A stretch of DNA of 64,000 bases, taken from the IMG/VR virus record IMGVR_UViG_3300045988_060960; one strand, given 5' to 3'. This stretch comes from a virus. The notes under the pieces are model-generated. The model did not search any database, was not told the DNA's origin, and saw only the letters and a program-made list of their open reading frames with translations. A program made the translations under genes and the position numbers. Shown here in pieces: positions 7,773 to 63,945 of the stretch (position 1 is the first letter of the stretch; every line of letters begins with the position of its first letter).

Positions 7773-7794
7773 ACAACTACAAGGAGGACAAAAA

Positions 7795-9407: not shown

Positions 9408-9479
9408 AGAGTTATGAGTTTATTCGATAAAAGTGAATTTGACGCAGAGCAAATGTTCCAGTATGAAAGGAGAAAAAAT

Positions 9480-10190: not shown

Positions 10191-10199
10191 GTAGCGAAA

Positions 10200-10243
10200 G
10201 ACACGCGGCCGCAGTGTAAGCGGTCGCGTGTCTTTTTTGTTTT
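10200..10243 (+). terminator. Rho-independent terminator
   Basis: The stem GACACGCGGCCGC / GCGGTCGCGTGTC (one mismatch) has loop AGTGTAA and is followed by TTTTTTGTTTT. Confidence 0.7.
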
Positions 10244-10258
10244 AAGGAGGACAGATTT

Positions 10259-10630: not shown

Positions 10631-12612
10631 AACACCATCTTTCGATTGACCTTGAAACTTTCAGCAGCGAGCCGATCGCAAAAACCGGCGCTTACAAATA
10701 CGTGCAAAGCCCGGATTTTGAGATCCTGCTGTTTGCATATTGCCTTGATGACGGCCCCGTAGAGATCGTTGATCTGGCGAATGGAGAGATCCTCCCGGAT
10801 TGGCTCTACGACGCCATCTCGAACCCTGATTACATTAAACACGCATATAACGCGGCGTTTGAATGGTATTGCCTGTCTAAGTTCTGCGGACGCTTACTTC
10901 CGGTGGATCAGTGGCGCGATACGATGCTGCACGGCTTGTATTGCGGGTTCACCGCCGGCTTGGATGCCACCGGCAAGGCTCTTGGCTTGCCGGCTGAAAA
11001 ACAGAAGCTGTCGGTAGGCAAGGCCCTGATCCGGTATTTCTGTGTCCCATGCGTAGCTACCCAGAGCAACGGAGGCAGGCACAGAAATCTTCCAAAGCAC
11101 GATCCTGAAAAATGGGAGCTGTTCAAGACCTACTGCTGCGGGGATGTCACGACGGAAATGGAAATCGAGCGACGGCTATCTGGATTTCCGGTTCCTGCCG
11201 ATGTTGAGAAGCAATGGCAGACCGATTTGCTGATTAACGCCCGCGGTGTTTCCGTTGACATGGGCATGGTTCGCGGGGCGCTTGAAATCGACGCTACGTC
11301 CAGAGATAAGCTCACTCAGGAAGCGATCTCGCTCACCGGGTTGGAGAACCCGAACAGCATCTCGCAGCTGGCAAAATGGTTGGAAAAAGCCACAAGCACT
11401 CCGGTGACTGACCTGCGCAAGGATACGGTTGCTGAAATGCTGGAAGCGGCTGCCCTTCCGGGATCTGCCCGAAGGATGCTCGAAATCCGGCAGGAGCTGG
11501 GCAAAACCAGCACGAAGAAGTATGTTGCCATAGAGGCTGCTGTTTGCAGAGACAGCCGCGTTCGCGGGCTGCTCCAATTCTACGGCGCGAACCGGACTGG
11601 TCGTTGGGCAGGCAGACTTGTTCAGGTCCAAAACCTCCCTCGAACATACATTGGTCAGCTCCCGCTGGCCCGTGAAGCTGTCAGAGGTAGGCAGGGTGAG
11701 AAGCTGCAACTCCTGTACGGTTCAGTTCCTGACACGCTCTCGCAGCTCATCAGAACCTCATTTGTGGCTTCTGACGGTTGCAAGCTGGTTGACGCCGATT
11801 TCAGCGCCATTGAAGCCCGCGTTATTTCCTGGCTGGCGGGTGAACAGTGGCGACTGGAAGTATTCAGAACCCACGGTAAGATCTACGAGGCTTCGGCCAG
11901 CCAGATGTTTGGAGTTCCTTTGGAGAGGATCAAGAAGGGGAACCCTGAATACGCGCTGCGCCAGAAGGGCAAGGTTGCTGAGCTGGCGCTTGGTTATCAA
12001 GGCAGCTCTGGCGCTCTGATCGCTATGGGAGCTTTGCGAATGGGCATTCCCGAAGAAGATTTGCCGGACATCGTTTCTCGCTGGCGGGATTCTAACAAGC
12101 GGATCGTTGACCTCTGGTACTCTCTTGAAACCGCTGCTGTTTCCGTCATTCAAACCGGACACACAGCGGGTGTCAGAGGGCTGATCCTCGCCAGAGAGTT
12201 CGACGTCGAAAACAATCTGGATTTTCTCACCATTACGCTGCCGAGCAAACGGAAGCTGTACTATGCGAATCCAGCGCTTGGTGAGAACCAGTGGAATCGG
12301 CCATCTATCCTCTACCGGGGCGTGAACCAGACAACAAAGCAGTGGTCGCAGCTTGAAACCTACGGCGGAAAACTCGTGGAGAATGTAGTTCAGGCTATCG
12401 CGCGTGATTGCCTCGCAACGGCTATCGAGAACCTTGAAGCAGCCGGCTTTCCGGTGGTCTTCCACGTCCACGACGAAGTTGTAATCGACTGCCCCTCCGG
12501 AAAAGCAAATCTTGATGAGGTGGTGCAGATTATGACACGCACAATTCCGTGGGCGCCCGATCTCCCCCTCAATGCCGATGGCTGGGTGGGCGACTTCTTC
12601 AGAAAGGACTGA
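10627..12612 (+). CDS. Family A DNA polymerase with an N-terminal 3'-5' exonuclease
   Basis: Motifs seen: the exonuclease motif SIDLETFS, motif A DADFSAIEARV, motif B KGKVAELALGYQGS and motif C VHDEVV. The ATG at 10627 follows GAGGTG. Confidence 0.9.
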   Translation: MKHHLSIDLETFSSEPIAKTGAYKYVQSPDFEILLFAYCLDDGPVEIVDLANGEILPDWLYDAISNPDYIKHAYNAAFEWYCLSKFCGRLLPVDQWRDTMLHGLYCGFTAGLDATGKALGLPAEKQKLSVGKALIRYFCVPCVATQSNGGRHRNLPKHDPEKWELFKTYCCGDVTTEMEIERRLSGFPVPADVEKQWQTDLLINARGVSVDMGMVRGALEIDATSRDKLTQEAISLTGLENPNSISQLAKWLEKATSTPVTDLRKDTVAEMLEAAALPGSARRMLEIRQELGKTSTKKYVAIEAAVCRDSRVRGLLQFYGANRTGRWAGRLVQVQNLPRTYIGQLPLAREAVRGRQGEKLQLLYGSVPDTLSQLIRTSFVASDGCKLVDADFSAIEARVISWLAGEQWRLEVFRTHGKIYEASASQMFGVPLERIKKGNPEYALRQKGKVAELALGYQGSSGALIAMGALRMGIPEEDLPDIVSRWRDSNKRIVDLWYSLETAAVSVIQTGHTAGVRGLILAREFDVENNLDFLTITLPSKRKLYYANPALGENQWNRPSILYRGVNQTTKQWSQLETYGGKLVENVVQAIARDCLATAIENLEAAGFPVVFHVHDEVVIDCPSGKANLDEVVQIMTRTIPWAPDLPLNADGWVGDFFRKD

Positions 12613-12617
12613 TTACT

Positions 12618-12917
12618 ATGACGCGAAAAGAGCGCGAAGAAAATCCGGGCGAATCTTTCGACGGCGGATACCACCTCTACGCGAAAGAGAAGCATGACGA
12701 GCGCGTTGCAAAGAATCCTGATCGGATTCAATACGCCATCGAGCAATTCCAGCGGAACAACATTGAGTTCTCCCTGAAAAACGCCCAGACCGGGCACTTC
12801 CACTGCCGGCGGCAGTCGGATGACAAGCTGTTCCAGTTCTGGGCCGGGACAGGAAAGATCCTGGGATACGACAATGTTCGCGGCATTCACGCGCTGATTA
12901 AGATTCTCACGAGGTAG
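12618..12917 (+). CDS. Hypothetical protein
   Basis: 99-aa ORF immediately after the polymerase. Confidence 0.55.
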   Translation: MTRKEREENPGESFDGGYHLYAKEKHDERVAKNPDRIQYAIEQFQRNNIEFSLKNAQTGHFHCRRQSDDKLFQFWAGTGKILGYDNVRGIHALIKILTR

Positions 12918-12922
12918 TAGAT

Positions 12923-13156
12923 ATGGCACACGACAACAAATCAAGTCTCTATGAAAATTCGGAGGGCTACCTTGACCCCACAGTAGGCGAGGCGATGAGC
13001 AACATTGCTGCCGAACAGCGTCGAAAAGAGGCCGACAGACTTGCCGCCATCAGCGCACTCATTCCGATCCTGCGGCAGACAGCGGAACTTGTGGGCTTCG
13101 AGATTGTAGGCAGGGTGGTTCTTCTGGATAAGGAATCGGGCAAGAAGTACAGATGA
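12923..13156 (+). CDS. Hypothetical protein
   Basis: 77-aa ORF in the operon. Confidence 0.55.
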   Translation: MAHDNKSSLYENSEGYLDPTVGEAMSNIAAEQRRKEADRLAAISALIPILRQTAELVGFEIVGRVVLLDKESGKKYR

Positions 13157-13178
13157 CGGAAGGAGGTCGGAGCCGAAT

Positions 13179-15596
13179 ATGAAAAACGACCGCCAAATCA
13201 CGATCACCGTCGGTAATAACCGAAAGAGTGTAAATTGGCAGCCGCAGACCATCATGCTTTCGGAATTCTACGAAAAGCTCCGAATTCCGAGCCGTTCGAC
13301 AGAGACGATGCAGGAATATCTGGCTCTGAAGAAATCAGAGCAGGATGACCGGAAAGACATCGGTGGATTCGTCGCAGGCAGCCTGTCCGGCCCCCGCAGA
13401 AAAGCGGGAGCCGTGACGGGACGTGATGTGATAACGCTGGATTTTGACAACATTCCTCCCGGCGGCACGGAGGAAATAGAAAAACGGGTCGAGGGCCTCG
13501 GGTGTGGGTACTGTATCTATTCCACTCGGAAACACGCACCGGCCAACCCTCGGCTGCGGATTCTACTGCCGCTCGATCGGACAGTGACTTCGGATGAATA
13601 CGAGCCTCTCGCCAGATACATGGCGACTTGTATCGGCATCGAGTTCGCTGATCCGACTACGTTTGAGGCCACCCGGCTCATGTATTGGCCGAGTTGCTGC
13701 GCAGACAGCGAGTACGTCTTCGTGTTCGGAGACAAGCAGATGCTCTATGCAGATGGCCTCCTGCAAGTCCTTAACGAGAAATACGGCGACTGGCGCGATG
13801 TGAGCAAGTGGCCGCAGGTTCCCGGAGCGGACAACGCATATAAAAAGATGGCGATGAAGCAGAGCGACCCGCTGAGCAAAAATGGCGTAGTGGGCGCGTT
13901 CTGCCGGACATACGACATATATGGCGCGATGGACACCTATCTCGACGGGATCTATGCACCGGTGGATAATTCCAGAGGCCGTTTCACTTATCTTGGCGGC
14001 AGCACGACCGGCGGCGCTGTGGTGTATGACAACGGTATGTTCCTCTATTCGCACCACTCCACTGACCCCTGCTGCGGGAAGCTGGTCAACGCCTTCGATA
14101 TGGTTCGGCTGCACAAGTTCGGAGACCGAGATGACGGTGCTGACCCCAATACTCCCACGAATAGACTTCCATCCTACACAGCGATGTGCCAGCTTGCCTT
14201 GGATGACCCCAAGGTCTCCCGGCAGCTGGCGAAGGAAAGAGCCGATTCTGCGGTGAACGATTTCGGCGGGCTGGCAGCGGCGGCCAAAGAGGGCGAGAAC
14301 CTCGACTGGACGATGGATCTGGAACTGAACCAAAACGGCATGGTCAAGGCCACCATCGACAACATCTGGCTTATCCTTGAAAACGACCCGAACCTCCGTG
14401 GCAAATTCGCTCTAAACGAGTTTGCGGGTCGTGGCGAGGTGTTGGGCGACTTACCGTGGAGTTCTTTCGACCAGCGCAGAGCTTGGGCAGACAATGACAA
14501 TCAGGGCCTCTACTGGTACTTCGAGAAGGTCTACAAGATCACCGGAAACGGGAAGATCGACGGCGCTCTATCCCTGCACAGCGAGAAGCATAAGTTCAAT
14601 GACGTGCGCAACTATCTGTCCAAGCTCAGCTGGGACGGCTATCCGCGTCTGGACACGCTGCTGATTGAGTACCTGGGCGCGATGGATCGACCCTATGTTC
14701 GGGCGGTCACGCGAAAGGCTTTCACAGCTGCTGTGGCTCGGGCCATGACCCCCGGCTGCAAATACGATACGATGCTCATTTTGGCAGGCGCCCAGGGCCT
14801 TGGCAAGTCCACCCTTCTCGACAAGATGAGCAGAGGCTGGTTCAACGACGGTATCCGCACATTTGAGGGAAAGGAAGCCAGCGAGCTGCTACAAGGCGTG
14901 TGGCTGGTCGAGATCGGCGAGCTGGACGCCTTCAGGCAGACAGATGTCGCTCGCATCAAGCAGTTCCTATCCCTGCGAGCAGACCGCTTTCGGGCGGCCT
15001 ACGGGCGCCACGTGAAGGATATCCCGAGATGCTGCGTGTTCTTCGGAACCACGAATACCGCCATGTTCCTGCGGGACCGCACCGGCAACCGCCGGTTCTG
15101 GCCGGTAGATGTGGGCCTGCAACCGCGCATCAAGACTGTGTGGGACGATTTGGATGACGACACCATTGACCAGATATGGGCCGAGGCTGTTATGCGCTGG
15201 CGTTTGGGCGAGAGCCTATTCCTGACGGGAGAGTTGGAAGACGAGGCCAAAAAGGAGCAGGAAGATCACCGGGAGATCAGCAGCAAGGAGGGCATCATCC
15301 TCGATTTTGTCGAGAGACAGGTGCCGGAGGATTGGCAAAAATGGTCGCTGGATAAACGCCGGCTGTTCTTAAACGGTACAGTCGAGGGCAACGTAACCTT
15401 GGTTCCACGCAACCGAATTTGTGCGCTGGAAATCTGGTGCGAAGCCTTCGGCGGGCAGCCGAGAGATTTCCGGTATTCTGAATCCTCGGAAATCAACGAC
15501 ATCCTCAGAGCGATGCCTGGATGGGAGAAAGCTCCCAACGGTTTGCGCTTCGGATATTGCGGGTATCAGAGGGGGTTCCTTCGGAGAAAGGAGTGA
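13179..15596 (+). CDS. Primase/helicase of the VirE (virulence-associated protein E) type
   Basis: 805 aa. It has a P-loop (LILAGAQGLGKSTLLDK), FFGTTN and RRFWPV blocks typical of VirE-family phage replication proteins, and a prim-pol-like N-terminus (ITLDFDN). Confidence 0.8.
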   Translation: MKNDRQITITVGNNRKSVNWQPQTIMLSEFYEKLRIPSRSTETMQEYLALKKSEQDDRKDIGGFVAGSLSGPRRKAGAVTGRDVITLDFDNIPPGGTEEIEKRVEGLGCGYCIYSTRKHAPANPRLRILLPLDRTVTSDEYEPLARYMATCIGIEFADPTTFEATRLMYWPSCCADSEYVFVFGDKQMLYADGLLQVLNEKYGDWRDVSKWPQVPGADNAYKKMAMKQSDPLSKNGVVGAFCRTYDIYGAMDTYLDGIYAPVDNSRGRFTYLGGSTTGGAVVYDNGMFLYSHHSTDPCCGKLVNAFDMVRLHKFGDRDDGADPNTPTNRLPSYTAMCQLALDDPKVSRQLAKERADSAVNDFGGLAAAAKEGENLDWTMDLELNQNGMVKATIDNIWLILENDPNLRGKFALNEFAGRGEVLGDLPWSSFDQRRAWADNDNQGLYWYFEKVYKITGNGKIDGALSLHSEKHKFNDVRNYLSKLSWDGYPRLDTLLIEYLGAMDRPYVRAVTRKAFTAAVARAMTPGCKYDTMLILAGAQGLGKSTLLDKMSRGWFNDGIRTFEGKEASELLQGVWLVEIGELDAFRQTDVARIKQFLSLRADRFRAAYGRHVKDIPRCCVFFGTTNTAMFLRDRTGNRRFWPVDVGLQPRIKTVWDDLDDDTIDQIWAEAVMRWRLGESLFLTGELEDEAKKEQEDHREISSKEGIILDFVERQVPEDWQKWSLDKRRLFLNGTVEGNVTLVPRNRICALEIWCEAFGGQPRDFRYSESSEINDILRAMPGWEKAPNGLRFGYCGYQRGFLRRKE

Positions 15597-15602
15597 CGCG
15601 GT

Positions 15603-15941
15603 ATGGTTGTGAAAAAGGCTGGCGGAAAAATATACGGGGCGGTCTTTACAGCCGCCGAGCGGAAGGCCATGAACATCGAGATCGAGAGACAGCTTGCGGA
15701 GTATACGCGCAAATACGAAGTAGAGCTGAACGCCAGAGTTTTGTACGTTCTTCGAGAGCAGTTGGGTTTCGGTGAGCAGCGTCTGCGGAGGTTCTTCGAT
15801 CGGTTTCAGATCGAGATAGATGATCTGGTCAAATACTACGAGATGGGCGACGAGGACGCCGCGTGGCTCTGTACGAGGAAGCTCAAAGAAGCCGGAATCG
15901 ACGTCGCCCAGTGGTGCAAAGAGGCTGAAACATTGGAATGA
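15603..15941 (+). CDS. Hypothetical protein
   Basis: 112-aa ORF. Its last 17 nt, including the TGA stop, lie inside the 313-bp element. Confidence 0.6.
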   Translation: MVVKKAGGKIYGAVFTAAERKAMNIEIERQLAEYTRKYEVELNARVLYVLREQLGFGEQRLRRFFDRFQIEIDDLVKYYEMGDEDAAWLCTRKLKEAGIDVAQWCKEAETLE

Positions 15942-16237
15942 AACATCTGAATTTAAGTCAAACATTAGACACGAAATTCAAACTTTAGGCGGGAAATTCA
16001 ACCCAATGTTTCAGGCCGTGAATGTTTCAATGTATCGCCAATGTTTCACCAATGTATCGGCCAAAACCCCAGTAAAATCAAGGGTTTCCGGCGTTTTGAA
16101 ACATTGAAACATTCATTTCTATAAATTATGAAAATAGAGAGATTAGAGAGATTAGAGAAAATATCGCACGTCTCTAATCTCTCTAATCCGCCTGATTTGC
16201 GCGTAGTACGCGCGCGCGAAACGGCTGAATGTTTCAG
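15925..16237 (+). repeat. 313-bp non-coding element, copy A, bounded by 10-bp terminal inverted repeats CTGAAACATT...AATGTTTCAG
   Basis: It aligns end to end with the reverse complement of 41902-42214, which is the same length. It contains 8 exact TGAAACAT/ATGTTTCA octamers (15926, 15939, 16097, 16105 forward; 16006, 16022, 16041, 16229 reverse), an AT-rich block and an 18-bp hairpin (16141-16158 / 16171-16188). Confidence 0.85.
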
Positions 16238-16247
16238 GAGGAAAAAC

Positions 16248-16535
16248 ATGAATGAAAGTCGAATTGAGAGGCACCTCGTAGACGGTGTAAAAAGGCTCGG
16301 AGGAATGTGCGTGAAGTTCGTAAGTCCGGGAACTCCCGGCGTTCCTGACCGCATTATTATCACCGCCACAGGCCGCATCATTTTTGTTGAACTGAAGACC
16401 GAGACCGGGCGTTTGTCTAAAATCCAGCGGTATACGATTGGAGAGATGATGAAGCGCGGCGCTGACGTGAGAACTGTCAAGGGTCTCGACGCGGTGAAGG
16501 AGCTTCTCGCTGAAATTGGAGGGATGCACGTATGA
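16248..16535 (+). CDS. VRR-NUC domain nuclease
   Basis: ERHLVDGVKRLGGMCVKFVSPGTPGVPDRIIITATGRIIFVELKTETGRLSKIQ matches the VRR-NUC PD-(D/E)XK core. The ATG at 16248 follows CAGGAGGAAAAAC. Confidence 0.85.
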   Translation: MNESRIERHLVDGVKRLGGMCVKFVSPGTPGVPDRIIITATGRIIFVELKTETGRLSKIQRYTIGEMMKRGADVRTVKGLDAVKELLAEIGGMHV

Positions 16536-17902
16536 TATTTAGTCCGTATCCGTATCAGCAGTATTGTATCGACAGCATCATCTACAATCGAGCGATAGGT
16601 CTGTTTTTGGATATGGGTCTCGGAAAAACAGTCATCACCCTGTCTGCGATCCACGACCTTCGGTACAATCGGTGGGAGGTATCCAAGCCACTCATCATCG
16701 CCCCAAAAACGGTAGCCGAGGCCACCTGGACTACGGAGGCAAAAAAGTGGGACCACTTGAAAATGATGCGGGTTGTTCCGGTTCTTGGTACGGTGCAGCA
16801 GCGGCTGCGGGCGCTGGCTACTCCGGCGGATGCTTATGTAATCAACCGCGAGAATGTGACTTGGTTGGTGGAGCATTTCAAAAATGCGTGGCCGTTCGAC
16901 ATGGTAGTGCTGGATGAAAGTTCCAGTTTCAAAAACGCATCCAGCAAGCGGTTCAAATCCATGAAGCTGGTTCGCAGTCGGATCAAGCGGATCGTGGAGC
17001 TGACCGGTACCCCGTCCAGCAACGGGCTGGAAGATCTGTGGGCGCAGATTTATCTCCTTGACGGCGGCGCCCGATTGGGCAAAACCTTGGGTGCCTACCG
17101 GGATCGGTATTTCGTTCCTGGCCGGAGAAACCGCACGACGATTTTCAATTACGCGCCGAAAGACGGCAGCTTTGAGATGATAAAACAGGCCATCAGCGAT
17201 ATTTGTATCAGCATGAAGGCCAGCGATTACCTGACCCTGCCAGACATGATTCCGCATGATATCCCGGTTGCCTTGGACAGCGCAGCGAAGAAAGCCTACG
17301 CGCAGTTGGAAACCGATCTGCTTTTGCAGGTTGACGAGAACACCATCACGGCGCAGAGTGCCGGCGTTCTCACGGGAAAGCTGCTTCAGCTCTGCAACGG
17401 TGCAATCTATGACGAGAATCGGAACGCCGTCAAAGTACATGACTGCAAAATCAATGCCTTTTTGGAGTTGATTGAGCAGCTGAACGGGCAACACGCCCTG
17501 GTGTTCTACAATTTCCAGCATGATCGTGACCGGCTTGTGGAGGCTTTGGCGAGTACGAAGCTGCGGGTTCGTGTATATTCACAGGCCAAAGATGAGGCCG
17601 ATTGGAACAACGGAGAGATCGACGTCCTGCTGGCCCATCCCGCGAGCTGCGGCTACGGACTGAACCTTCAGCGCGGCGGCTACAATGCGATTTGGTTCGG
17701 GCTGACTTGGAGCTTGGAGCAGTATGAGCAGGCCAACAAGCGGCTTCACCGGCAGGGGCAAGAGCATCCGGTTGTGATCCACCACCTGATTGTGCAGGGC
17801 GGTATGGACGAATCGGTGGTCGCAGCCCTTCAGAGCAAGGGCGATATGCAAAACGCGCTGATGGATGCGCTGCGCGTTCGCATCAACAAATTACGCAGTT
17901 AA
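16532..17902 (+). CDS. SNF2-family helicase
   Basis: Motif I is LDMGLGKT and motif II is VVLDESSSFKN. The C-terminal helicase lobe contains QANKRLHRQGQ. Confidence 0.9.
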   Translation: MIFSPYPYQQYCIDSIIYNRAIGLFLDMGLGKTVITLSAIHDLRYNRWEVSKPLIIAPKTVAEATWTTEAKKWDHLKMMRVVPVLGTVQQRLRALATPADAYVINRENVTWLVEHFKNAWPFDMVVLDESSSFKNASSKRFKSMKLVRSRIKRIVELTGTPSSNGLEDLWAQIYLLDGGARLGKTLGAYRDRYFVPGRRNRTTIFNYAPKDGSFEMIKQAISDICISMKASDYLTLPDMIPHDIPVALDSAAKKAYAQLETDLLLQVDENTITAQSAGVLTGKLLQLCNGAIYDENRNAVKVHDCKINAFLELIEQLNGQHALVFYNFQHDRDRLVEALASTKLRVRVYSQAKDEADWNNGEIDVLLAHPASCGYGLNLQRGGYNAIWFGLTWSLEQYEQANKRLHRQGQEHPVVIHHLIVQGGMDESVVAALQSKGDMQNALMDALRVRINKLRS

Positions 17903-17919
17903 AAAAGGAGGAGTTCACC

Positions 17920-18411
17920 ATGAACAGAGATGAGATCGCGGAAGTCACCCGCATTGCCGCAGCTGAAGTTCTTGCCCGAAAGGATGAGCTGCTTGATGAG
18001 GAATATGACGCTCGTTATCACGACGTTAATCTGCTTATGAAAAACTACCGGAAGCTGAAAGCGCATTACTCCCACGTCTCTCCCGAGGCTCTGGAAGTGA
18101 GTTCGATCTGCTCGATGCGCCGGAAGACTGGGCTGATGATGAGCCACGTAGATAAAATGCTGGTGGCCTACGAGGCCATGTGCAAGGAATCCGAGAACTC
18201 TGATGAGGCCCGGCGCTGGGAGGCGCTGTATCTGCGGTACATCCAGCCCACTCGCATGAGTGTGGACGATATCGCTGATGAGCTGTGTATTGATAAGCGG
18301 ACCTTCTATCGCGACATCAATCGCGCGATGGAAGACATGGCCGTTTTGCTGTTCGGAATTGAGGCCATCGGGTCGTGGAGGCACAAGCGTGCTGCCGACG
18401 TCAAAAGATAA
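17920..18411 (+). CDS. Putative late-gene transcriptional activator (ArpU/RinA/sigma-70 region 4-like)
   Basis: It has NYRKLKAHY and a C-terminal HTH-like block SVDDIADELCIDKRTFYRDINRAMEDMA. It is the last gene of the replication operon. The family assignment is from memory and not verified. Confidence 0.55.
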   Translation: MNRDEIAEVTRIAAAEVLARKDELLDEEYDARYHDVNLLMKNYRKLKAHYSHVSPEALEVSSICSMRRKTGLMMSHVDKMLVAYEAMCKESENSDEARRWEALYLRYIQPTRMSVDDIADELCIDKRTFYRDINRAMEDMAVLLFGIEAIGSWRHKRAADVKR

Positions 18412-18419
18412 AATCGGAA

Positions 18420-18450
18420 GGGTCTGCCGGTCTTCGGCAGGCTCTTTTTT
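18420..18450 (+). terminator. Rho-independent terminator
   Basis: A stem of about 10 bp (GGGTCTGCCG / CGGCAGGCTC, with G-U pairs) is followed by TTTTTT. Confidence 0.7.
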
Positions 18451-18466
18451 ATTCCTGTCCGTTCTC

Positions 18467-18535
18467 TTTTCAGAAAATTTTTCGGGAAAAAATTTTAGGA
18501 AAAACCTTGACAAAAATGACCAAAAGTCGTATAAT
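18467..18535 (+). promoter_or_regulatory. Degenerate A/T-tract operator copy plus a TTGACA-17-TATAAT promoter
   Basis: TTTTTCGGGAAAAAATTTTAGGAAAAA is at 18477-18503. TTGACA is at 18507-18512 and TATAAT at 18530-18535. The leader AGAATAGAAAGAAAA is shared with the promoter at 232-260. Confidence 0.6.
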
Positions 18536-18582
18536 AAGAATAGAAAGAAAAAGAAAGAGACCGTAAGAGGAGGCCGATAAAG

Positions 18583-18870
18583 ATGATGAACACAGAAGAT
18601 TGCATCAGAGCTGAAGTTGAATATCGAGAATGGCGCGAATGCCCGCTTTGGTATTGCGTCAAGACCAAGCTCGGAAGCGACGGTTCAGTCGAGAGTGAGA
18701 TCGTCAGTGATGAGAAAACCAAAGTTCCAATCGCCATTCAGAGCGCGGATAAACCGCTGGACGGCGTGTTTGAGGACGCGAGCGGAGTTACCTACTACAC
18801 CTACCACGCCGGGTACAAGGCAGCAGCCAAGCAGGTTGAGGCCGCCAAGAAAGTAGGCAAACTCAGCTGA
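18583..18870 (+). CDS. Hypothetical protein (95 aa) driven by a consensus promoter
   Basis: The ribosome-binding site is AGAGGAGG. The product begins MMNTEDCIRAEVEYREWRECPLWYC. I recognised no family. Confidence 0.6.
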   Translation: MMNTEDCIRAEVEYREWRECPLWYCVKTKLGSDGSVESEIVSDEKTKVPIAIQSADKPLDGVFEDASGVTYYTYHAGYKAAAKQVEAAKKVGKLS

Positions 18871-18892
18871 CCATTTCAGTCATTTGTATCAC

Positions 18893-19108
18893 CTACTTTC
18901 CGACCGCTTCTCGGCGGCTTTTTCTTTGCCTGAAATCGAACTGATACAGATGTGTTTCAACGCCCAGTGCAGTTTCTCGGTAAAAAATACCGTCTGAAAT
19001 CCACTCTCGGACGATCCGCTCTCCGCCGTTCAACTCAGGCATACTGGCTTTTGCCAGATCTGCAAGCTCTGCCGCAACCGCAAGCAGAACTGAGATGGCC
19101 GTAATCAC
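18893..19108 (-). CDS. Possible small protein downstream of the cro-like gene (GTG start overlapping the TGA stop)
   Basis: There is a GTGA overlap with the stop of 19105-19311. However, the 3' end overlaps a plus-strand terminator-like hairpin, so this may be spurious. Confidence 0.3.
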   Translation of the reverse strand: MITAISVLLAVAAELADLAKASMPELNGGERIVREWISDGIFYRETALGVETHLYQFDFRQRKSRREAVGK

Positions 19109-19311
19109 TGGCCCTGATTTACGTCGTCGGCCAGAAGCTCCTCGATGGTGCAACCGTAGAGCTTCGCAAGCAAGGGCAGCTTATCCGCTCGCGGCTTAGA
19201 AAGCCCACGCTCCCACTTGCTTACGGCGGATTCCTTCACGCCAACGGCCTTTGCGACCTCACGCTGCGTAGGGATGGCTCCGCGAAGCCTCCGCTCTCTC
19301 ATTACGTTCAT
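19105..19311 (-). CDS. XRE-family HTH protein, Cro-like
   Basis: LRGAIPTQREVAKAVGVKESAVSKWERGLSKPRADKLPLLAKLYGCTIEELL is a canonical XRE helix-turn-helix. It is divergent from the second XRE gene. Confidence 0.8.
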   Translation of the reverse strand: MNVMRERRLRGAIPTQREVAKAVGVKESAVSKWERGLSKPRADKLPLLAKLYGCTIEELLADDVNQGQ

Positions 19312-19360
19312 CCTTTCACCTCCTGAACTACTTTGCGGTGGGTTTCTTAACTTACGGTTT

Positions 19361-19455
19361 CATTATAGCACTTATAGTCCTCAATGTCAACTCCCATTCT
19401 CTTTTTTCTCGAAAAATTTTCTGGTGTTGACAACTTGACTTAAAAGACATATAAT
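19361..19455. promoter_or_regulatory. Divergent lysogeny-switch promoters with an A/T palindrome between them
   Basis: Minus strand: TTGACA at 19390-19385, 18-nt spacer, TATAAT at 19366-19361. Plus strand: TTGACA at 19427-19432, 17-nt spacer, TATAAT at 19450-19455. Between them lies TTTTTTCTCGAAAAATTTTCTGG. Confidence 0.65.
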
Positions 19456-19482
19456 TGACTTTAAGGAAAGGTGGTGACACTT

Positions 19483-19899
19483 ATGGACGGATTCGGTGAT
19501 AGACTGAGAAGGCTCAGAAAAGACCGGGACATCACGCAAGGGCAGCTCGCTGAAGTGATCGGGGTTGTTCCATCTGCCGTGGGCAAATATGAAAGGATTC
19601 CGCAGTCTTACCCGAGTGTGGACGCTCTTATAAAGATTGCGGACTTCTTTGACGTCAGCATAGACTATTTGCTTCGCGGAACTCAGCCATCTCAAACTGT
19701 CGAAAATAACTTGAACGGGCAGATGCTCAACAGCTCTTTCGTGCAGGCCAACCACGGGGGAATCGTGTACAACGGAGACGGAGGTAATAATTTCTCCCCA
19801 GAGGCGTTGGAACTGCTGCGCATTTATGAGACCTTGAATGGCCGGGAACGCTTGAAGCTGCTGAACTTCGCTGTGGAATTGGACGGTGATACGAAATGA
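19483..19899 (+). CDS. XRE-family repressor, CI-like
   Basis: LRRLRKDRDITQGQLAEVIGVVPSAVGKYERIPQSYPSVDALIKIADFFDVSIDYLL. The ATG at 19483 follows AAAGGTGGTG. It is the first gene of an operon ending in the integrase. Confidence 0.8.
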   Translation: MDGFGDRLRRLRKDRDITQGQLAEVIGVVPSAVGKYERIPQSYPSVDALIKIADFFDVSIDYLLRGTQPSQTVENNLNGQMLNSSFVQANHGGIVYNGDGGNNFSPEALELLRIYETLNGRERLKLLNFAVELDGDTK

Positions 19900-20330
19900 G
19901 AGTGACGTTGGATATAAAAAAGCAGTGCTCTTTCTTCTGGCTGAGAGCTATCCGAAGCGCCCGTATAGACCGGTGCTGCGCCAAGTGTTTCATCGGGGAT
20001 GCCTACCACGAGGTCTATGAAGGAACCCGATTCAAAGATAAGGCGCACGTGGATCTGGAAATCACTCCTGATCCGCGTGTCAAGGCGTATTACCTTTGCG
20101 GTCTCAGCCGTGGATTCCGGTACAAGGATAATACTCACATCGCTTTCGTCCCCTGCGAGGGGCAAGACATTGAAGTGGAAAACGACAAGATTCGGCTCAT
20201 AATTACTGGCGCTCGCCAGATTGATTTCCAGAATTACAAGCCGAACCCGGAAGGCGAATATACCCACGAACAGCGTACCTGCCGAAACTGGATCTTCGCC
20301 AACTATTTGCTGGACGGGATGCCGCTTTGA
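19896..20330 (+). CDS. Cys-containing 145-aa family protein, paralog 2 of 3
   Basis: FFWLRAIR..CCAKCFIG..AYYLCGLS..NTHIAFVP..TCRNWIFANY. Its start overlaps the repressor stop (ATGA), and its stop overlaps the integrase start (TTGA). Confidence 0.8.
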   Translation: MRVTLDIKKQCSFFWLRAIRSARIDRCCAKCFIGDAYHEVYEGTRFKDKAHVDLEITPDPRVKAYYLCGLSRGFRYKDNTHIAFVPCEGQDIEVENDKIRLIITGARQIDFQNYKPNPEGEYTHEQRTCRNWIFANYLLDGMPL

Positions 20331-21727
20331 ACCGCGCAGCCCTCTACATCCGCGTCTCTACGCTTGAACAGGCGCAGGAGGGCTATTCCGTAGGCGAGCA
20401 GAAGGAACGCCTGATTGCGTACTGCAAAGCCAAAGACTGGATCATCGCAGACATCTATGTGGATGGCGGATATACCGGCAGCAATCTGAATCGCCCCGGT
20501 ATCCAGAAGCTCATCTCAGAAACGGATAAGTTTGATCTCGTGCTGGTCTACAAGCTGGACCGCCTCTCACGGTCTCAGCGGGACACGCTGTACCTCATCG
20601 AAGAAATATTCCGGCCCAAGGGCGTAGACTTTATCTCCATGCAGGAGAGCTTCGACACCTCTACGCCCTTCGGAAAAGCAATGATCGGCCTGCTGGCAGT
20701 ATTTGCCCAGCTTGAACGCGAGCAGATCAAGGAGCGAACGTGGATGGGCCGCGTTGCCCGAGCCAAAACCGGCCTCCATCACGGTGGCGGGTACATCCCT
20801 ATCGGCTACGAGTATGAGGACGGGCATCTCGTCATCAATCCGTATGAGGCAGAGCAGGTTCGGAAGATCTACGAATGGTATCTCGCCGGCGCTTCCCTGA
20901 AGACAATAACTGACCGGCTGCAAGAGGCGGGGTACACCAATAAATACAGCAGCTATACCTCGTGGTCAAGTGTTCGGAACATTCTCGGCAATGAGACCTA
21001 CACTGGGAGGCTGCACTTCGGAGATGTGGTCGTGGATCACGCACACGAAGCAATTATCAGTACAGAACAGTTCAACGCTGCACAGGTTCTGCGAGGTAAG
21101 AAGCAGGAACAATACGGCACGGCTTTCCAGTCGAAGCACCTCCTGACTGGGCTTATCTTTTGTGGACATTGCGGAGGACGGTATTACCTTCGCAACACCG
21201 GCAAGTACACCTACTATGCCTGCTACTCCCGCACCAAGCAGATAAAGAGCATGGTCAAGGACCCGAACTGCAAAAACAAGATCTGGAAAGGCTCTGAGCT
21301 GGAACCCATCATTGATGCCAAGATCCGGGAACTGCTGTCCTCCCCGCAGATGGCAGCCGAGATTGCGGCAGCTCGAAAGCCAAAGCCAGCCACCGGCAGC
21401 AGAAATACCGAAGTGGAAAAGCGGCTCCGGGAAATCGACAAACAAATTGGTAAGCTCATGGAGCTGTACCAGCACGACGATATACCGCCCGAGCTTCTGG
21501 GCGAGCGCATCAACAAGCTCTACAACGAGCGCACCGCGTTGGAATCCACCCTTGCCCCGGTGGTCGAGGATGAGGCCATGCCGTTCGATTTGGTGGAGGC
21601 CCTCATCTCGGACGCCGCGCAGGTCTGGGACTTCGCGGACGAGAGCCAGAAACGCCGCATCCTGCAAAGCCTCGTGTCCCGCATTGTGCTCACCGATGAT
21701 GACGTCAAGATTGAGTGGGCCTTCTGA
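20327..21727 (+). CDS. Large serine recombinase (phage integrase)
   Basis: AALYIRVSTLEQ carries the catalytic Ser motif. LVYKLDRLSRS is present, followed by recombinase and zinc-ribbon regions (CGHCGG..YYAC) and a coiled-coil tail. It uses a TTG start. Confidence 0.9.
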   Translation: MNRAALYIRVSTLEQAQEGYSVGEQKERLIAYCKAKDWIIADIYVDGGYTGSNLNRPGIQKLISETDKFDLVLVYKLDRLSRSQRDTLYLIEEIFRPKGVDFISMQESFDTSTPFGKAMIGLLAVFAQLEREQIKERTWMGRVARAKTGLHHGGGYIPIGYEYEDGHLVINPYEAEQVRKIYEWYLAGASLKTITDRLQEAGYTNKYSSYTSWSSVRNILGNETYTGRLHFGDVVVDHAHEAIISTEQFNAAQVLRGKKQEQYGTAFQSKHLLTGLIFCGHCGGRYYLRNTGKYTYYACYSRTKQIKSMVKDPNCKNKIWKGSELEPIIDAKIRELLSSPQMAAEIAAARKPKPATGSRNTEVEKRLREIDKQIGKLMELYQHDDIPPELLGERINKLYNERTALESTLAPVVEDEAMPFDLVEALISDAAQVWDFADESQKRRILQSLVSRIVLTDDDVKIEWAF

Positions 21728-25294: not shown

Positions 25295-25737
25295 CAGTTT
25301 GTACCTCCTTCAGAAATGGCAAGAGTGCTGACAAGGGAATCCAGCTCGCATACGGCGTCCTCAATGGCGCTCATACGCTCATCATTCATCTCGTCCTGCT
25401 CACACATGGCGTCCTCGATCTCGCTCATCCGGGTGCCGGTCAGCTCGTCCTGCTCACACAGGGCGTCTTCCAGCGCGGCAGTGCTCTCGTTGACCTGCTG
25501 GATAACAGGCCCGGTCTTATCGACGGCACGGTAATGCCGGTCGATCTCGTACCAGTCGTAGCAGTTGCCCTCCACGTCCTCGGCGCTCTCGATTTTCCGC
25601 ACGACGCGGAAGTTATCGGTGATGGTCTGGTCGGGGAATGTCTGCTCGATCTGGTGGAACCCGGTCAGGTCGGTGTGGGAATCGCCCTTTGTTTTGAGGA
25701 CTTCGATTTCGCCCTGCGTTCCAAATACGTATTCCAA
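25294..25737 (-). CDS. Hypothetical protein in the XkdW position, with EDAxCEQDE repeats
   Basis: A TTG start follows AAAGGAGGA. The repeats are EDALCEQDE, EDAMCEQDE and EDAVCELD. Confidence 0.6.
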   Translation of the reverse strand: MEYVFGTQGEIEVLKTKGDSHTDLTGFHQIEQTFPDQTITDNFRVVRKIESAEDVEGNCYDWYEIDRHYRAVDKTGPVIQQVNESTAALEDALCEQDELTGTRMSEIEDAMCEQDEMNDERMSAIEDAVCELDSLVSTLAISEGGTN

Positions 25738-26861: not shown

Positions 26862-27004
26862 AGGGATGTTCCTCCTTTTAGCTGTACGGGCTTTCCAGCG
26901 CCTCCGCAGAGGTGTACTAACCCGCTCCCCAAATTTGCTTATCTTCACCAAGGGGTGCGCGACTACCTGTGCCGTGAAATGGAGGATTAAGCAAAGCACA
27001 AAAA

Positions 27005-41441: not shown

Positions 41442-41675
41442 TCAGGATTTTTTATTCCACTCATTTTGCCACAGGAGGCGGGCCTGCTCAGCTTCTGTAA
41501 ACTCAAACAGATCCATTTCTTTCAGCTCTGTATAGCTGATTCCCCCCATGCAGAATGTCATCCGCCAAAAGCGTTCATTCCTGCGCGCTCGTTTCTCGGC
41601 GGCTTTAGGATTTTGCTCGCTCCGCAAGAAAGTTTTCGATCTCGCGTACCAGCTCACCCGGCGTTGCGAGATCAT
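41442..41675 (-). CDS. Tail assembly chaperone extension ORF (possible frameshift product or a small separate gene)
   Basis: It overlaps the 3' end of 41605-41886 by 71 nt in the +1 frame. An internal ATG at 41561 is an alternative independent start. Confidence 0.4.
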   Translation of the reverse strand: MISQRRVSWYARSKTFLRSEQNPKAAEKRARRNERFWRMTFCMGGISYTELKEMDLFEFTEAEQARLLWQNEWNKKS

Positions 41676-41886
41676 CCTGATCGTCGAAGTAACGGATTCC
41701 GCCCTTCGAGACTTCCACGGGCGCAGTTACGCAGCCCTTGATGAGTGCGTCCGCGTATTTCGCGGTATTCTTTCTTCCATTGGCGGGGTTGATGTAGAGG
41801 TCAGTCAGGTTCGAGTACCACGAAAAGGTGACACTCTGAAGCTGGTAATCCACGCCACCGACGGTGACTGTTTTAGTACGGGCCAT
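41605..41886 (-). CDS. Tail assembly chaperone (XkdN position)
   Basis: 93 aa, between the tube and tape measure genes. The ribosome-binding site is GAAGGAG. Confidence 0.65.
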   Translation of the reverse strand: MARTKTVTVGGVDYQLQSVTFSWYSNLTDLYINPANGRKNTAKYADALIKGCVTAPVEVSKGGIRYFDDQDDLATPGELVREIENFLAERAKS

Positions 41887-41901
41887 AGGTCAACACTCCT
41901 T

Positions 41902-42214
41902 CTGAAACATTCAGCCGTTTCGCGCGCGCGTACTATGCACGAATTAGGCGTATTAGAGAGAATAGGCGTATACGTGCTGCACACGAATACGCCTAAATAC
42001 TCTATTTTAGATATTATTAGGAATAAATGTTTCAATGTTTCAAAACGGTCAAAACCCCAGTAAATACGGGGATTTTGGGTGAAACATTGCCGATACATTG
42101 GCGAAACTTTGAAACATTCGGGGGCTGAAACATTGGGTTGAATTTCCCGCCTAAACTTCGACTTTCGTGTCTAATGTTAGACTTTAATTCAGATGTATCA
42201 CCCCAATGTTTCAG
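41902..42214 (-). repeat. 313-bp non-coding element, copy B (inverted relative to copy A)
   Basis: It has the same 10-bp termini and the same length. It contains 7 exact TGAAACAT/ATGTTTCA octamers (41903, 42080, 42110, 42126; 42027, 42035, 42206) and a hairpin TAGGCGTAT/ATACGCCTA (41963-41971 / 41987-41995) at the position homologous to the hairpin in copy A. Confidence 0.85.
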
Positions 42215-42606
42215 TTTTGCAGCGTCAGATCCGGGATGATAAAGATGATGGAAACGTCCGCAGCTTCCTTCGCACGGGAGCGGTCGGGCAGCTTGGACAC
42301 CATCACATTCCGGGCAAAAATCACAGTGCCGTTGTCATTGGCATCCGTGACAGCCAGATTGCCCATTGTGTTCTGCTCGGCGCACCGCTCGATGAACGAG
42401 ATGTCCGGAGAATCGGGCTGAAGCGTGATGGTCAGCTTAGCAGCCTTGTTGGCGTTCAGGATGTAGGTCCCGTCGCCCTTCACGCCTTTCTTCAGCGTCA
42501 CGTTATCCTCGTCTCTTGCAAGGGTGAACAAGCTGTCACCGAACATACGGAGCTGATGATTGTTGAAGGTCACGTTTACCTTCTGGGGATCGTAGGTCTG
42601 TAACAT
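42211..42606 (-). CDS. Tail tube protein (XkdM position)
   Basis: 131 aa, immediately after the sheath gene. Its TGA stop lies inside the terminal repeat of the element. Confidence 0.7.
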   Translation of the reverse strand: MLQTYDPQKVNVTFNNHQLRMFGDSLFTLARDEDNVTLKKGVKGDGTYILNANKAAKLTITLQPDSPDISFIERCAEQNTMGNLAVTDANDNGTVIFARNVMVSKLPDRSRAKEAADVSIIFIIPDLTLQN

Positions 42607-56704: not shown

Positions 56705-57541
56705 TCAGTTCCTTTGCTTTATTTTTTCGTTCCCGTTGAGAGGCGGCCCGAGGAGGTCGCAATCCACGTCAGGAGCGGGCTGAACATAGCCGTAGTGGTT
56801 TGCATAACAGTAGGCGCAGCCGTTGCTGCAAGTGCTGTACGCACCGATATCGACGCTCTCAACGCATTGGCAAAGGCCGCGCTGGTTGCGGTCCTTTGGC
56901 TTGTCAACGCCAAACATTTTTCCATCGACGCAGCAAGAATGGGGTATTCCCAAATCCTCTGCGCAGGAACTTAAAACGATCCCGTGCTGCCGTGCAATCT
57001 CGAAAAGTTCCTGCGCAAATTCGCGCTGCTGCTCCGGCGACAAGGGCTGTATTTTGAGCGGTCGGAGGTCTACGCTTCGGTAGGAATCGACGAAGCTCAT
57101 CACCGCCTTATACGTGTGGCCTTCGAGCGCCTCCGCGATTTTGGTAAAAGCCCTGACGTGATAATCCCAGGTGTATTTCTCATTCAGAAAGACGGGATCG
57201 TAACGCCAGATGGCCTTATCCGCCCCGATCTTTTTGAACGCCGGAATAACAATCTCGTTCTTATCGGGAATATTCCGCTCCACATCCCGGCCATACGGGG
57301 TGATGGTGTACTGGAAATAATATTTGAACGCATCCAGCTCGTGAATTCTATCGAGCATGGGGGCTGCGTTTTTGGTCCAAAAAACAAACCCATCTACTTT
57401 GTCGGGCGTGAGGGATACACGCCCGACTTGTAGAGGGTTGTATGGGTTTCTAAGGAGGACAAATCCCTTACCCACGCGGTTGTAAAACCACTCGGAGAAC
57501 AAAGCCGGGATGTCCGTCCGTCTACTTGCGCTCACGATCAT
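56705..57541 (-). CDS. DUF1848-like protein with a C-terminal Cys cluster (putative Fe-S, radical-SAM-like)
   Basis: The N-terminus is MIVSASRRTDIPALFSEWFYNRV and the C-terminus is GLCQCVESVDIGAYSTCSNGCAYCYANH. Start set at 57541 (ATGA overlap with the upstream gene). The track ORF extends further by read-through. Confidence 0.8.
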   Translation of the reverse strand: MIVSASRRTDIPALFSEWFYNRVGKGFVLLRNPYNPLQVGRVSLTPDKVDGFVFWTKNAAPMLDRIHELDAFKYYFQYTITPYGRDVERNIPDKNEIVIPAFKKIGADKAIWRYDPVFLNEKYTWDYHVRAFTKIAEALEGHTYKAVMSFVDSYRSVDLRPLKIQPLSPEQQREFAQELFEIARQHGIVLSSCAEDLGIPHSCCVDGKMFGVDKPKDRNQRGLCQCVESVDIGAYSTCSNGCAYCYANHYGYVQPAPDVDCDLLGPPLNGNEKIKQRN

Positions 57542-58008
57542 AATGGCATCCCATCCTTCAAGTAATTCGCAAATATCCAGTTTCGGCAGGTCCGCTGAGA
57601 CTTTGTATAAACTCCGGGCGGATTCGGAACATAGTCCCAGAAGTGAATTCTGCGGGCGTTTGTGATGTCGAGCTTGATTCTGTCGTTTTCGATGTGAACT
57701 TCCGAATTGCTGTCCGGCACAAACGCGACGTGCGTATTCAACTCCCACACAAAACCATCGCTCAGCCCGCAAAGATAATACGCTTTCGCTCGCGGGCTTT
57801 GCCCCACCATGATGTCAACAACGGCCTGCGATTTGTGCAGTGTTCCGTAGTAGACCCGGTTGTCCTTCTCGCCGATAAAACACTTGGCGCAGCATTGCGA
57901 GATGTCAACGTCCCGAATGTCTCGGAGCCAGAAGAAATTGCATTTCTTCCGAATCTCCAATCGCAGGTGCATCGGCGCGTGTGTAACTATGAAATCCGAT
58001 GGTATCAT
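57538..58008 (-). CDS. Cys-containing 145-aa family protein, paralog 3 of 3
   Basis: MHLRLEIRKKCNFFWLRDIR..CCAKCFIG..AYYLCGLS..NTHVAFVP..TCRNWIFANY. The likely true start is the ATG at 57972, because the ATG at 58008 lies inside the -10 box. Confidence 0.8.
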   Translation of the reverse strand: MIPSDFIVTHAPMHLRLEIRKKCNFFWLRDIRDVDISQCCAKCFIGEKDNRVYYGTLHKSQAVVDIMVGQSPRAKAYYLCGLSDGFVWELNTHVAFVPDSNSEVHIENDRIKLDITNARRIHFWDYVPNPPGVYTKSQRTCRNWIFANYLKDGMPL

Positions 58009-58036
58009 TATAGCACCCCCTTAAATGACAGGTCAA
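58007..58036 (-). promoter_or_regulatory. Candidate promoter TTGACC-18-TATAAT for the three-gene SAM cassette
   Basis: On the minus strand, TTGACC is at 58036-58031 and TATAAT at 58012-58007. Confidence 0.45.
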
Positions 58037-63474: not shown

Positions 63475-63945
63475 ATGATACCATCGGATTTCATAGTTAC
63501 ACACGCGCCGATGCACCTGCGATTGGAGATTCGGAAGAAATGCAATTTCTTCTGGCTCCGAGACATTCGGGACGTTGACATCTCGCAATGCTGCGCCAAG
63601 TGTTTTATCGGCGAGAAGGACAACCGGGTCTACTACGGAACACTGCACAAATCGCAGGCCGTTGTTGACATCATGGTGGGGCAAAGCCCGCGAGCGAAAG
63701 CGTATTATCTTTGCGGGCTGAGCGATGGTTTTGTGTGGGAGTTGAATACGCACGTCGCGTTTGTGCCGGACAGCAATTCGGAAGTTCACATCGAAAACGA
63801 CAGAATCAAGCTCGACATCACAAACGCCCGCAGAATTCACTTCTGGGACTATGTTCCGAATCCGCCCGGAGTTTATACAAAGTCTCAGCGGACCTGCCGA
63901 AACTGGATATTTGCGAATTACTTGAAGGATGGGATGCCATTATGA
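63475..63945 (+). CDS. Mirror copy of the Cys-containing family protein (paralog 3)
   Basis: Its translation is identical to 57538-58008. Confidence 0.5.
   Translation: MIPSDFIVTHAPMHLRLEIRKKCNFFWLRDIRDVDISQCCAKCFIGEKDNRVYYGTLHKSQAVVDIMVGQSPRAKAYYLCGLSDGFVWELNTHVAFVPDSNSEVHIENDRIKLDITNARRIHFWDYVPNPPGVYTKSQRTCRNWIFANYLKDGMPL

Follow-up and report, generated by a model that had tools for sequence, protein, structure and literature searches.

A probable second, inverted copy of the replication-origin region in the tail operon of a temperate Oscillospirales myovirus

The stretch of DNA analysed here, IMG/VR virus record IMGVR_UViG_3300045988_060960 (64,000 nucleotides; hereafter the window), consists essentially of a temperate phage of ~60.7 kb, which carries two copies of a repeat-rich intergenic element. 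A replication module is annotated on the plus strand (8238-21727), in which the genes for an exonuclease, a Gp2.5-like single-stranded DNA-binding (SSB)/annealing protein, PolA, a VapE-type primase-helicase and orf112 are followed by the first copy of the element (copy A) and subsequently by the genes for a VRR-NUC nuclease, an SNF2 helicase, a helix-turn-helix (HTH) protein, an Xre-like protein and a large serine integrase. A chain of minus-strand genes extends over ~39 kb, from ~60.6 kb down to 21.8 kb. The sheath gene, the tail tube gene, the second copy of the element (copy B), the tail assembly chaperone gene and the tape measure gene are annotated in this chain, and below the tape measure gene Rfam matches and repeats near 27 kb are of the type seen with a diversity-generating retroelement.

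A repeat search of the window identified the two ~320-nt copies, which are mutually inverted and ~26 kb apart, as the inverted pairs 15925-16146/41993-42214 (222 nt; 81% identity) and 16174-16242/41897-41965 (69 nt; 90% identity). In a pairwise alignment the homology spans from the ribosome-binding site of the downstream gene to the stop codon of the upstream gene, and every block of copy A is present in copy B. Both copies have the same polarity relative to their flanking genes and each is situated mid-way in a long operon. The inverted arrangement and the shared polarity towards the local genes had been recognised in the initial annotation and are borne out by the repeat search and the alignment. 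The open reading frames (ORFs) furthermore confirm its placement of copy B between the tube and chaperone genes, with the tube stop codon inside the terminal repeat, but the start that it gave to the element (41902) requires correction, as the intergenic element extends from 41887 to 42214. Contigs OIZQ01000526.1 and OIZQ01000231.1, from a metagenome in which the same phage was assembled independently, reproduce both copies with 3-4 mismatches per 350-360 nt.

The 9-mer TGAAACATT occurs 15 times as an exact match in the window (expected: 0.59; a count of 15 was reached in 0/100 shuffles), with 14 of these occurrences located within the two copies. Where up to two mismatches are allowed, each copy contains 11-12 of these repeats, which we refer to as iterons, in both orientations. 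The TGA stop codon of the tube gene (42211-42213) forms the first three bases of the terminal TGAAACATT of copy B, and that of orf112 (TGA; 15939-15941) likewise begins an iteron in copy A. The comparison with PBSX-like clusters, where the tube and chaperone genes are normally close to each other, is supported by Clostridium phage phiCT453A, in which xkdM and xkdN are 15 nt apart, and the view of copy B as an unusual structured interruption of the tail operon is upheld. No match was found at the element in the Rfam (gathering threshold) and tRNA scans, nor by blastn of the element against GenBank phages, while blastn of the 7.5-kb tail region against the same phages returned tape-measure fragments only. 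An exact 22-mer of the ribosome-binding-site end has no match in IMG/VR, and no prior description of the element was found in the literature. We consider it probable, from the sequence comparisons described below, that copy B represents a second, inverted copy of the replication-origin region of the phage, bound by the phage's own primase-helicase.

Copy A fills the gap between orf112, which directly follows the primase-helicase gene, and the VRR-NUC gene. Eighty loci were fetched using VRR-NUC as anchor, down to 49% identity. The gap between the primase-helicase stop codon and the VRR-NUC gene is 260-330 nt in most of these loci and mostly holds a similarly organised array, which starts at the primase stop codon in most lineages, the small orf112 being located in between in the window. 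The array comprises, in order, two or three forward repeats, a spacer, three to six reverse repeats, an A-run/CC..GG/T-run palindrome, an overlapping tandem pair of forward repeats, an AT-rich stretch, an inverted repeat with arms of TTAG units, a TACGCGCG block and the ribosome-binding site. The overlapping tandem pair recurs in most lineages examined, even where the iteron sequence is another one, while the arms of the long inverted repeat covary both between copies and between lineages, and fold equally on both strands. The repeats themselves are lineage-specific, and include GAAACATT, GGAACATT, GYAACATT, CTAACATT, GTAACTTT, GTCAACA, GGCAACAT, CTAATTACA, GGGACAAC and GTAAACA. Arrays with this layout are also present in Staphylococcus aureus phage 47 (41806-42147), with nine copies of TGATRCAACA, and in Clostridium phage phiCT453A (12976-13339), each as a single copy in the genome.

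The CGCGCG block, the TTAG-arm inverted repeat and the AGTC-N5-TTAGRC units of copy B are conserved and occur also at the equivalent positions of copy A, and the TTAG-arm inverted repeat can also be observed in S. aureus phage 47. The hairpin loop of copy A (16060-16095) is reverse-complemented relative to its counterpart in copy B and in all relatives, and the independent assembly agrees; the A-run/GC-stem/T-run hairpin is flipped in place in copy A.

The replication initiators (Reps) of the S. aureus pathogenicity islands (SaPIs) are self-loading initiator-helicases that bind iterons through a C-terminal winged-helix domain, and SaPI origins, situated directly after rep, consist of 6-12 iterons on both sides of an AT-rich centre (PMC9371898). 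Copy A fits this description in its location downstream of the initiator gene, while copy B does not. The iterons fit in their number (11-12), in their two orientations and in the AT-rich centre (81-86% A+T), but are placed asymmetrically, with one iteron on the ribosome-binding-site side of the AT-rich stretch and zero in some relatives. By its position and organisation, copy A is an origin-type region of this phage family, at which replication is predicted to fire.

The primase-helicase matches the VapE-like and phrog_256 profiles (Pfam VapE-like domain; e-value: 7.5e-76), and its residues 376-736 match the SaPI1 Rep1-DNA complex (PDB 7PDS; phmmer; e-value: 1.1e-71). An AlphaFold model of residues 620-805, built with 37 homologs, has a pLDDT of >90 over the last ~100 residues and aligns with the 7PDS chains over 164-172 columns (e-value: 2e-7), the next structural matches being winged-helix DNA-binding domains (IRF, FOX) with non-significant e-values. 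The model places the variable residue 796 in a C-terminal β-hairpin. This residue is the X of the C-terminal motif FGYCG-X-QRGF (Y796 in the window), which covaries with the iteron sequence. Tyrosine is paired with GAAACA in all 17 loci that carry it and in the window. Lysine occurs in 16 loci of at least three separate lineages, where the iterons could be read in all but L084; 14 have a clear GGAACA array, and L063 has GGAACT/GGAACA. A second scan yielded 17 more lysine-type loci with six different C-terminal tails, all with GGAACA. Alanine is paired with GYAACA (14 loci), the motif GPHGTQRGF with CTAACA (3 loci) and GPHGIQKGF with GGCAACA (8 loci), while other motif variants are paired with GTCAACA, CTAATTACA and GGGACAAC. 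No exception to the pairing of residue X with the third iteron base was found in ~80 loci. The lysine-type proteins of L077-81 share 88-90% identity with the window protein and are thereby closer to it than several tyrosine-type relatives; the iteron lineages are distinguished by the single motif residue alone, and not by identity over whole domains of the primase regions.

The HTH_23 protein (17920-18411), the Xre-like protein, orf95, orf144 and orf112 were likewise considered as binders and rejected; GAAACA and GGAACA lineages cannot be told apart by the whole-domain identity of these proteins, which are undetectable in distant lineages that still have iteron arrays. The repeats are assigned to the primase-helicase, as iterons to which it is predicted to bind, because the motif residue covaries with the iteron, none of the other proteins nearby follows the repeats and the primase-helicase is homologous to Rep1.

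Relatives of the element were retrieved from IMG/VR, metagenomes and genomes with element-derived patterns, which returned dozens of contigs. Among the junctions that could be classified, 24 are upstream of VRR-NUC and 22 upstream of the chaperone gene, and no other context for the TGAAACATT element was found among these 46 parental junctions, bar three primase-chaperone hybrid contigs discussed below. In relatives with 62-85% tube identity, copy B keeps its place immediately before the chaperone gene, and all but one of the loci retrieved through the tube protein (70-85% tube identity) contain a homologous element. The remaining locus, L060, has a 105-nt tube-chaperone gap with a hairpin and lacks copy B. 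In one lineage a MetK-like gene follows the tube gene and the element follows the MetK-like gene, and because the tube gene is thus separated from the element, the latter can be said to travel with the chaperone start rather than with the tube stop. In loci L033-L044 of the TGGAACATT lineage (e.g. L037), the gene at ~4420-5220 (locus coordinates) encodes a product that begins MIEKVNPSHPDKIADRIAG and resembles S-adenosylmethionine synthetase (MetK).

Copy B always shares its iteron type with copy A of its own genome, as in the window (TGAAACATT at both copies) and in contig 3300045988_028045 (TGGAACATT at both copies). The identity between copies A and B within a genome is 70-76%, which equals or exceeds the identity to the orthologous copies in divergent lineages; in the TGGAACATT lineage, copies A and B share 76% identity, as opposed to 53-64% with any copy of the TGAAACATT lineage. 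The shared iteron type and the within-genome identity suggest that the two copies co-evolve with a common binder, and perhaps through gene conversion between them. Copy B, present down to ~62% tube identity, is old and maintained. The classifiable metagenome matches derive mostly from human gut samples. A related prophage copy A is found in the cultured strain Butyricicoccus pullicaecorum DSM 23266, both copies occur on one contig of a Clostridia metagenome-assembled genome (MAG), and another copy is present in an Oscillospiraceae MAG. A scan with GGAACATTGGAACATT for second copies in distant lineages gave mostly unrelated environmental contigs among the matches listed. At least ~70 environmental viral contigs (L141-L259, e.g. 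L153, L157, L169, L187 and L239) contain dense, often symmetric GGAACA clusters with the tandem pair GGAACATTGGAACATT, and the DNA fetched for them contains no detectable homolog of the primase-helicase, VRR-NUC or chaperone of the phage.

Bacillus phage SPP1 contains two regions, oriL and oriR, with similar repeats and an AT-rich element, and oriR interrupts the late structural genes. It has been proposed that gp38 at oriR stalls replication forks and triggers the switch from theta to sigma replication, with restart occurring via a junction resolvase, exonuclease, annealing protein and SSB (PMC6316719, PMC3485210). In the mechanism proposed for the phage of the window, hexamers of the primase-helicase would bind the iterons through the C-terminal winged-helix-like domain and, at copy A, would melt the AT-rich stretch, self-load and prime DNA synthesis. 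Copy B would be bound by the same protein and function as a second origin or, like oriR as proposed for SPP1, as a fork barrier. In the latter case, forks from the first origin would stall at copy B, and the exonuclease, Gp2.5-like annealing protein and VRR-NUC may process the stalled fork into a concatemer-producing mode of replication.

The system has in common with SPP1 that each genome carries two regions of repeats plus an AT-rich stretch for one origin-binding protein (the binding being predicted here), that the second region is inside the late morphogenesis cluster (here between tube and chaperone) and that an exonuclease, an annealing/SSB protein and a junction nuclease are encoded, as required by the model of fork stalling and restart. 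It differs in that a self-contained VapE-type primase-helicase takes the place of gp38, a DnaB-type helicase and its loader, and in that the two copies are in inverted orientation and each takes up an intergenic gap as far as the ribosome-binding site, whereas oriL is situated within gene 38. The likeness to SPP1 established here is thus one of arrangement (repeats, AT-rich stretch, late cluster). With the SaPIs, the initiator itself is shared, namely a homologous VapE-type superfamily 3 (SF3) helicase (e-value to Rep1: 1e-71) with a fold match through the C-terminal domain, which is a fused primase-helicase as is PriRep5 of SaPI5. A further common feature is the location of the origin downstream of the initiator gene, with short lineage-specific iterons that surround an AT-rich stretch in both orientations. 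In contrast to the SaPI origins, the iterons are 8-9 nt rather than 5-6 nt long and unevenly distributed (approximately ten on one side and zero to two on the other), additional AGTC/TTAG units, the TTAG-arm inverted repeat and the CGCGCG block are present, and a second inverted copy is found 26 kb away, in a 60-kb temperate myovirus of Oscillospirales rather than a satellite.

Two further systems may be compared. In satellite phage P4, the C-terminal origin-binding domain of the primase-helicase reportedly recognises the same iterons at ori and at crr, according to work of Ziegelin, Lanka, Calendar and colleagues in the 1990s, and the two loci, 4.5 kb apart, are said to be both needed in cis. 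The iterons of a primase-helicase at two separate loci are thus common to P4 and, as proposed, to the phage of the window, although the repeats at crr are organised in another way and P4 is a small plasmid-like satellite. In the Sfi21-type phages of Streptococcus thermophilus, a repeat-rich non-coding element directly after a VapE-like primase gene is said to function as an origin when cloned, as reported by Foley and colleagues in Virology in 1998. Going by this description, copy A resembles it as a short, non-coding and repeat-rich element after such a gene, but the Sfi21-type element is single-copy.

Several observations weigh against copy B being an origin-type region. It is not adjacent to the initiator gene, and has a single iteron on the ribosome-binding-site side of the AT-rich stretch, as opposed to two or more on either side in the SaPI description. 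S. aureus phage 47 and phiCT453A are single-copy and L060 is without copy B, and the second copy is therefore not required for the replication system. The covariation of motif residue and iteron is correlative and partly confounded by shared ancestry. Finally, a role in transcription could be signalled by the constant polarity and by the way in which each copy fits exactly between a stop codon and a ribosome-binding site. The features of both copies and the flanking genes are listed in Table 1.

Table 1. Coordinates of the two copies of the element, their component parts and the adjacent genes in the window
Feature	Position (nt)	Strand	Remarks
Copy B, origin-like element	41887-42214	-	Entire tube-chaperone intergenic region; flanking transcription on minus strand
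Copy B, first iteron group	42192-42213	-	Two copies in transcription direction: TGAAACATT (holds tube stop) and TGATACATC
Copy B, conserved block	42135-42185	-	Two ~21-nt units AGTC-N5-TTAGRC-N-GAAA, from alignment
Copy B, five opposite-orientation iterons	42080-42134	+	TGAAACATT (three), CGATACATT, CGAAACTTT; start spacings 11, 11, 8 and 16 nt
Copy B, palindrome	42051-42076	.	A-run/CCCC, 9-nt loop, GGGG/T-run; resembles a bidirectional terminator
Copy B, overlapping tandem iteron pair	42026-42042	-	TGAAACATTGAAACATT
Copy B, AT-rich stretch	42005-42025	.	86% A+T (window: 45%); candidate DNA-unwinding element
Copy B, long inverted repeat	41953-42004	.	Arms of TTAGRGR/TAGGCGTAT units
Copy B, alternating (CGCGCG) block	41921-41930	.	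CGCGCGCGCG; TACGCGCG in most lineages
Copy B, last iteron and chaperone ribosome-binding site	41896-41911		Iteron 41903-41911 beside AAGGAG 41896-41901 (-)
Copy A, origin-like element	15925-16244	+	Between orf112 and VRR-NUC
Copy A, forward iterons	15926-15966	+	TGAAACATT, TGAAACATC, TCAAACATT; orf112 stop in the second
Copy A, five opposite-orientation iterons	16005-16059	-	
Copy A, tandem pair and AT-rich stretch	16097-16140	+	Pair 16097-16113, then AT-rich 16114-16140 (81% A+T)
Copy A, last iteron and VRR-NUC ribosome-binding site	16228-16242	.	Iteron 16228-16236; GGAGGA
Tail assembly chaperone gene	41605-41886	-	
Tail tube gene	42211-42606	-	phrog_280
Primase-helicase gene	13179-15596	+	VapE, SF3 helicase, 805 amino acids; Y796 codon 15564-15566
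orf112	15603-15941		Downstream of primase-helicase gene
VRR-NUC nuclease gene	16248-16535	+	ATG at 16248
SNF2 helicase gene	16532-17902		After VRR-NUC

A function of copy B mainly in transcription appears unlikely. The bound primase-helicase, together with the A-run/GC-hairpin/T-run structure, would in this case attenuate or re-start transcription between the genes for the abundant sheath and tube and those for the low-copy chaperone, tape measure and baseplate proteins, and so couple late tail expression to replication. Such a role would be consistent with the uniform polarity of both copies in all relatives, each ending exactly at the ribosome-binding site, with the A and T runs around the central hairpin and with the mid-operon location of each copy, the nearest strong structural-gene promoter being at 58036 (58007-58036; 11/12). 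A weak candidate (TTGAAA-N18-TAtAAa) can furthermore be recognised by eye over the tandem iterons. However, a scan found no sigma-A-type promoter in either copy, while four perfect (12/12) TTGACA-N17-TATAAT promoters are present elsewhere, at 232-260 (-), 18507-18535 (+), 19362-19390 (-) and 19427-19455 (+). The CCCC/GGGG stem with A and T runs is found in the copies of the window, where the terminator scan makes no call, but in most relatives the central hairpin is weaker, with 2-3 G-C pairs and mismatches. The strand difference for the long inverted repeat amounts to -0.1 ± 3.5 kcal/mol (n=16), and the module as a whole plainly copies the origin-type region beside the initiator gene. The transcriptional control point envisaged in the initial annotation is thus not favoured, given copies without a sigma-A promoter and hairpins without RNA-strand preference.

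Three contigs from different samples (L004, L303 and L323) have the primase joined to the chaperone gene across a hybrid element, with three different crossover points. In L004, the exonuclease, SSB, PolA and primase genes, the hybrid element (7500-7850) and the chaperone and tape measure genes are contiguous over 11 kb. Recombination between inverted repeats such as these copies would invert the intervening 26 kb with operon polarity kept. The inverted origin pair might itself constitute a replication-mode switch, in which recombination or template switching between its two initiator-bound members during theta replication flips one fork, as in the double-rolling-circle mechanism of Futcher for the 2-micron plasmid of yeast. 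We regard this as a rather doubtful proposal; if true, the switch would give rise to packaging concatemers and to two isomers differing by the 26-kb inversion, and the primase-chaperone hybrid contigs would be its trace. It is improbable that the copies serve in the first place to invert the segment, for genome isomers or double-rolling-circle amplification, with a secondary origin activity of copy B. The hybrid contigs would be expected under such a function, and the inverted geometry leaves the operons co-directional in both isomers, but the reciprocal junction (tube-element-VRR-NUC) was never seen, as opposed to 46 parental junctions. Of the hybrid contigs, two are covered at 1.4-2.4x and one contains a Nextera adaptor, while copies A and B of the hybrid lineage are identical over stretches of 21-31 nt, a length sufficient to give rise to assembly chimeras. 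Because of the missing reciprocal junction, the low coverage, the adaptor and these identities, assembly chimeras are a full alternative explanation for the hybrids. Site-specific inversion by the serine integrase (20327-21727) is rejected because the three hybrids have three different crossover points.

The initial annotation had further read the element as an insertion, possibly mobile, while leaving transposition as unproven, and had proposed a comparison with relatives. Close relatives were found to carry an equivalent region, and all 46 classifiable contigs have the element at the same two fixed sites. Transposition is still unsupported, as the flanks differ between the copies, neither is flanked by a direct repeat, a comparison of the flanks revealed no target-site duplication at either copy, and the ends of the element are its outermost iterons. 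It is very improbable that the element is a non-autonomous mobile element resembling a miniature inverted-repeat transposable element, inserted at two intergenic sites, although the copies of the window have 10-nt terminal inverted repeats (CTGAAACATT...AATGTTTCAG) and the tube-chaperone gap of L060 is without the element. The terminal repeats, of which the one at the ribosome-binding-site end is absent in L016, L018, c013414 and c028045, are ordinary iterons. No transposase is associated with the element, it has been found at the two positions only (46 parental junctions and three hybrids), and the position and architecture of copy A are kept down to 49% VRR-NUC identity while the repeats change with the primase-helicase. 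The mobile-element interpretation is largely refuted. A structured RNA occurring once per operon (a nut/put-like antitermination element or a small RNA) is extremely improbable, for although there is one copy in each long operon, with the same polarity to transcription, and the hairpin arms covary, there is no Rfam match at the gathering threshold, sense and antisense strands fold equally with no strand bias in the counts of G-U pairs, the loop of the central hairpin has opposite orientations in copies A and B, and the main conserved features are short double-strand repeats in both orientations.

A number of additional features can be observed in the window. Two of the 12/12 promoters are inside a duplicated ~90-nt region (repeat I3; 216-289/18478-18551), while those at 19.4 kb form a divergent pair that flanks the Xre-like gene. 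Rfam family RF02276 identifies a type II hammerhead ribozyme (46.2 bits, gathering threshold: 37) at 6991-7057 (-), between two minus-strand ORFs. An RT-18 RNA (RF03021; 69.7 bits) at 26872-26957 (-) is found near 141-nt direct repeats (27005-27145/27265-27405; 88% identity), together the template/variable repeat signature of a predicted diversity-generating retroelement near the tail-fibre region. Tandem 54-nt units with 70% identity (25340-25447; repeat family D2) lie in a minus-strand ORF near the retroelement region. Paralogous ORFs of ~145-155 amino acids at 19896-20330 (+) and 57538-58008 (-), the latter mirrored at 63475-63945, contain stretches of 70-75% identical DNA (repeats D3, D4, I5 and I6) and have no PHROG match. 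The end of the window is reached by a perfect palindrome without spacer, with arms of 3259 nt (57483-60741/60742-64000) and the centre GGGGTA/TACCCC. It represents either a fold-back of the contig or chimeric assembly at ~60.74 kb, or a hairpin or head-to-head end of the phage DNA, and a 23-mer beside its centre (60741) has no match in IMG/VR.

The results suggest that repeat-rich intergenic blocks in phage structural operons should be compared with the initiator-adjacent region before a mobile element or a regulatory RNA is named. From the comparisons, a likely replication origin and the code by which it is recognised can be named for a large, uncultured group of Clostridia phages of the gut, in which a single residue in the tail of the primase-helicase predicts the iteron sequence; the same replication module occurs in phages of S. 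aureus, Clostridium and Listeria. The arrangement in the window is possibly a second natural case of a two-origin layout in the style of SPP1, with an unrelated initiator, and would thereby allow the proposed role of a late origin, as a fork barrier or switch of replication mode, to be tested in a second system.

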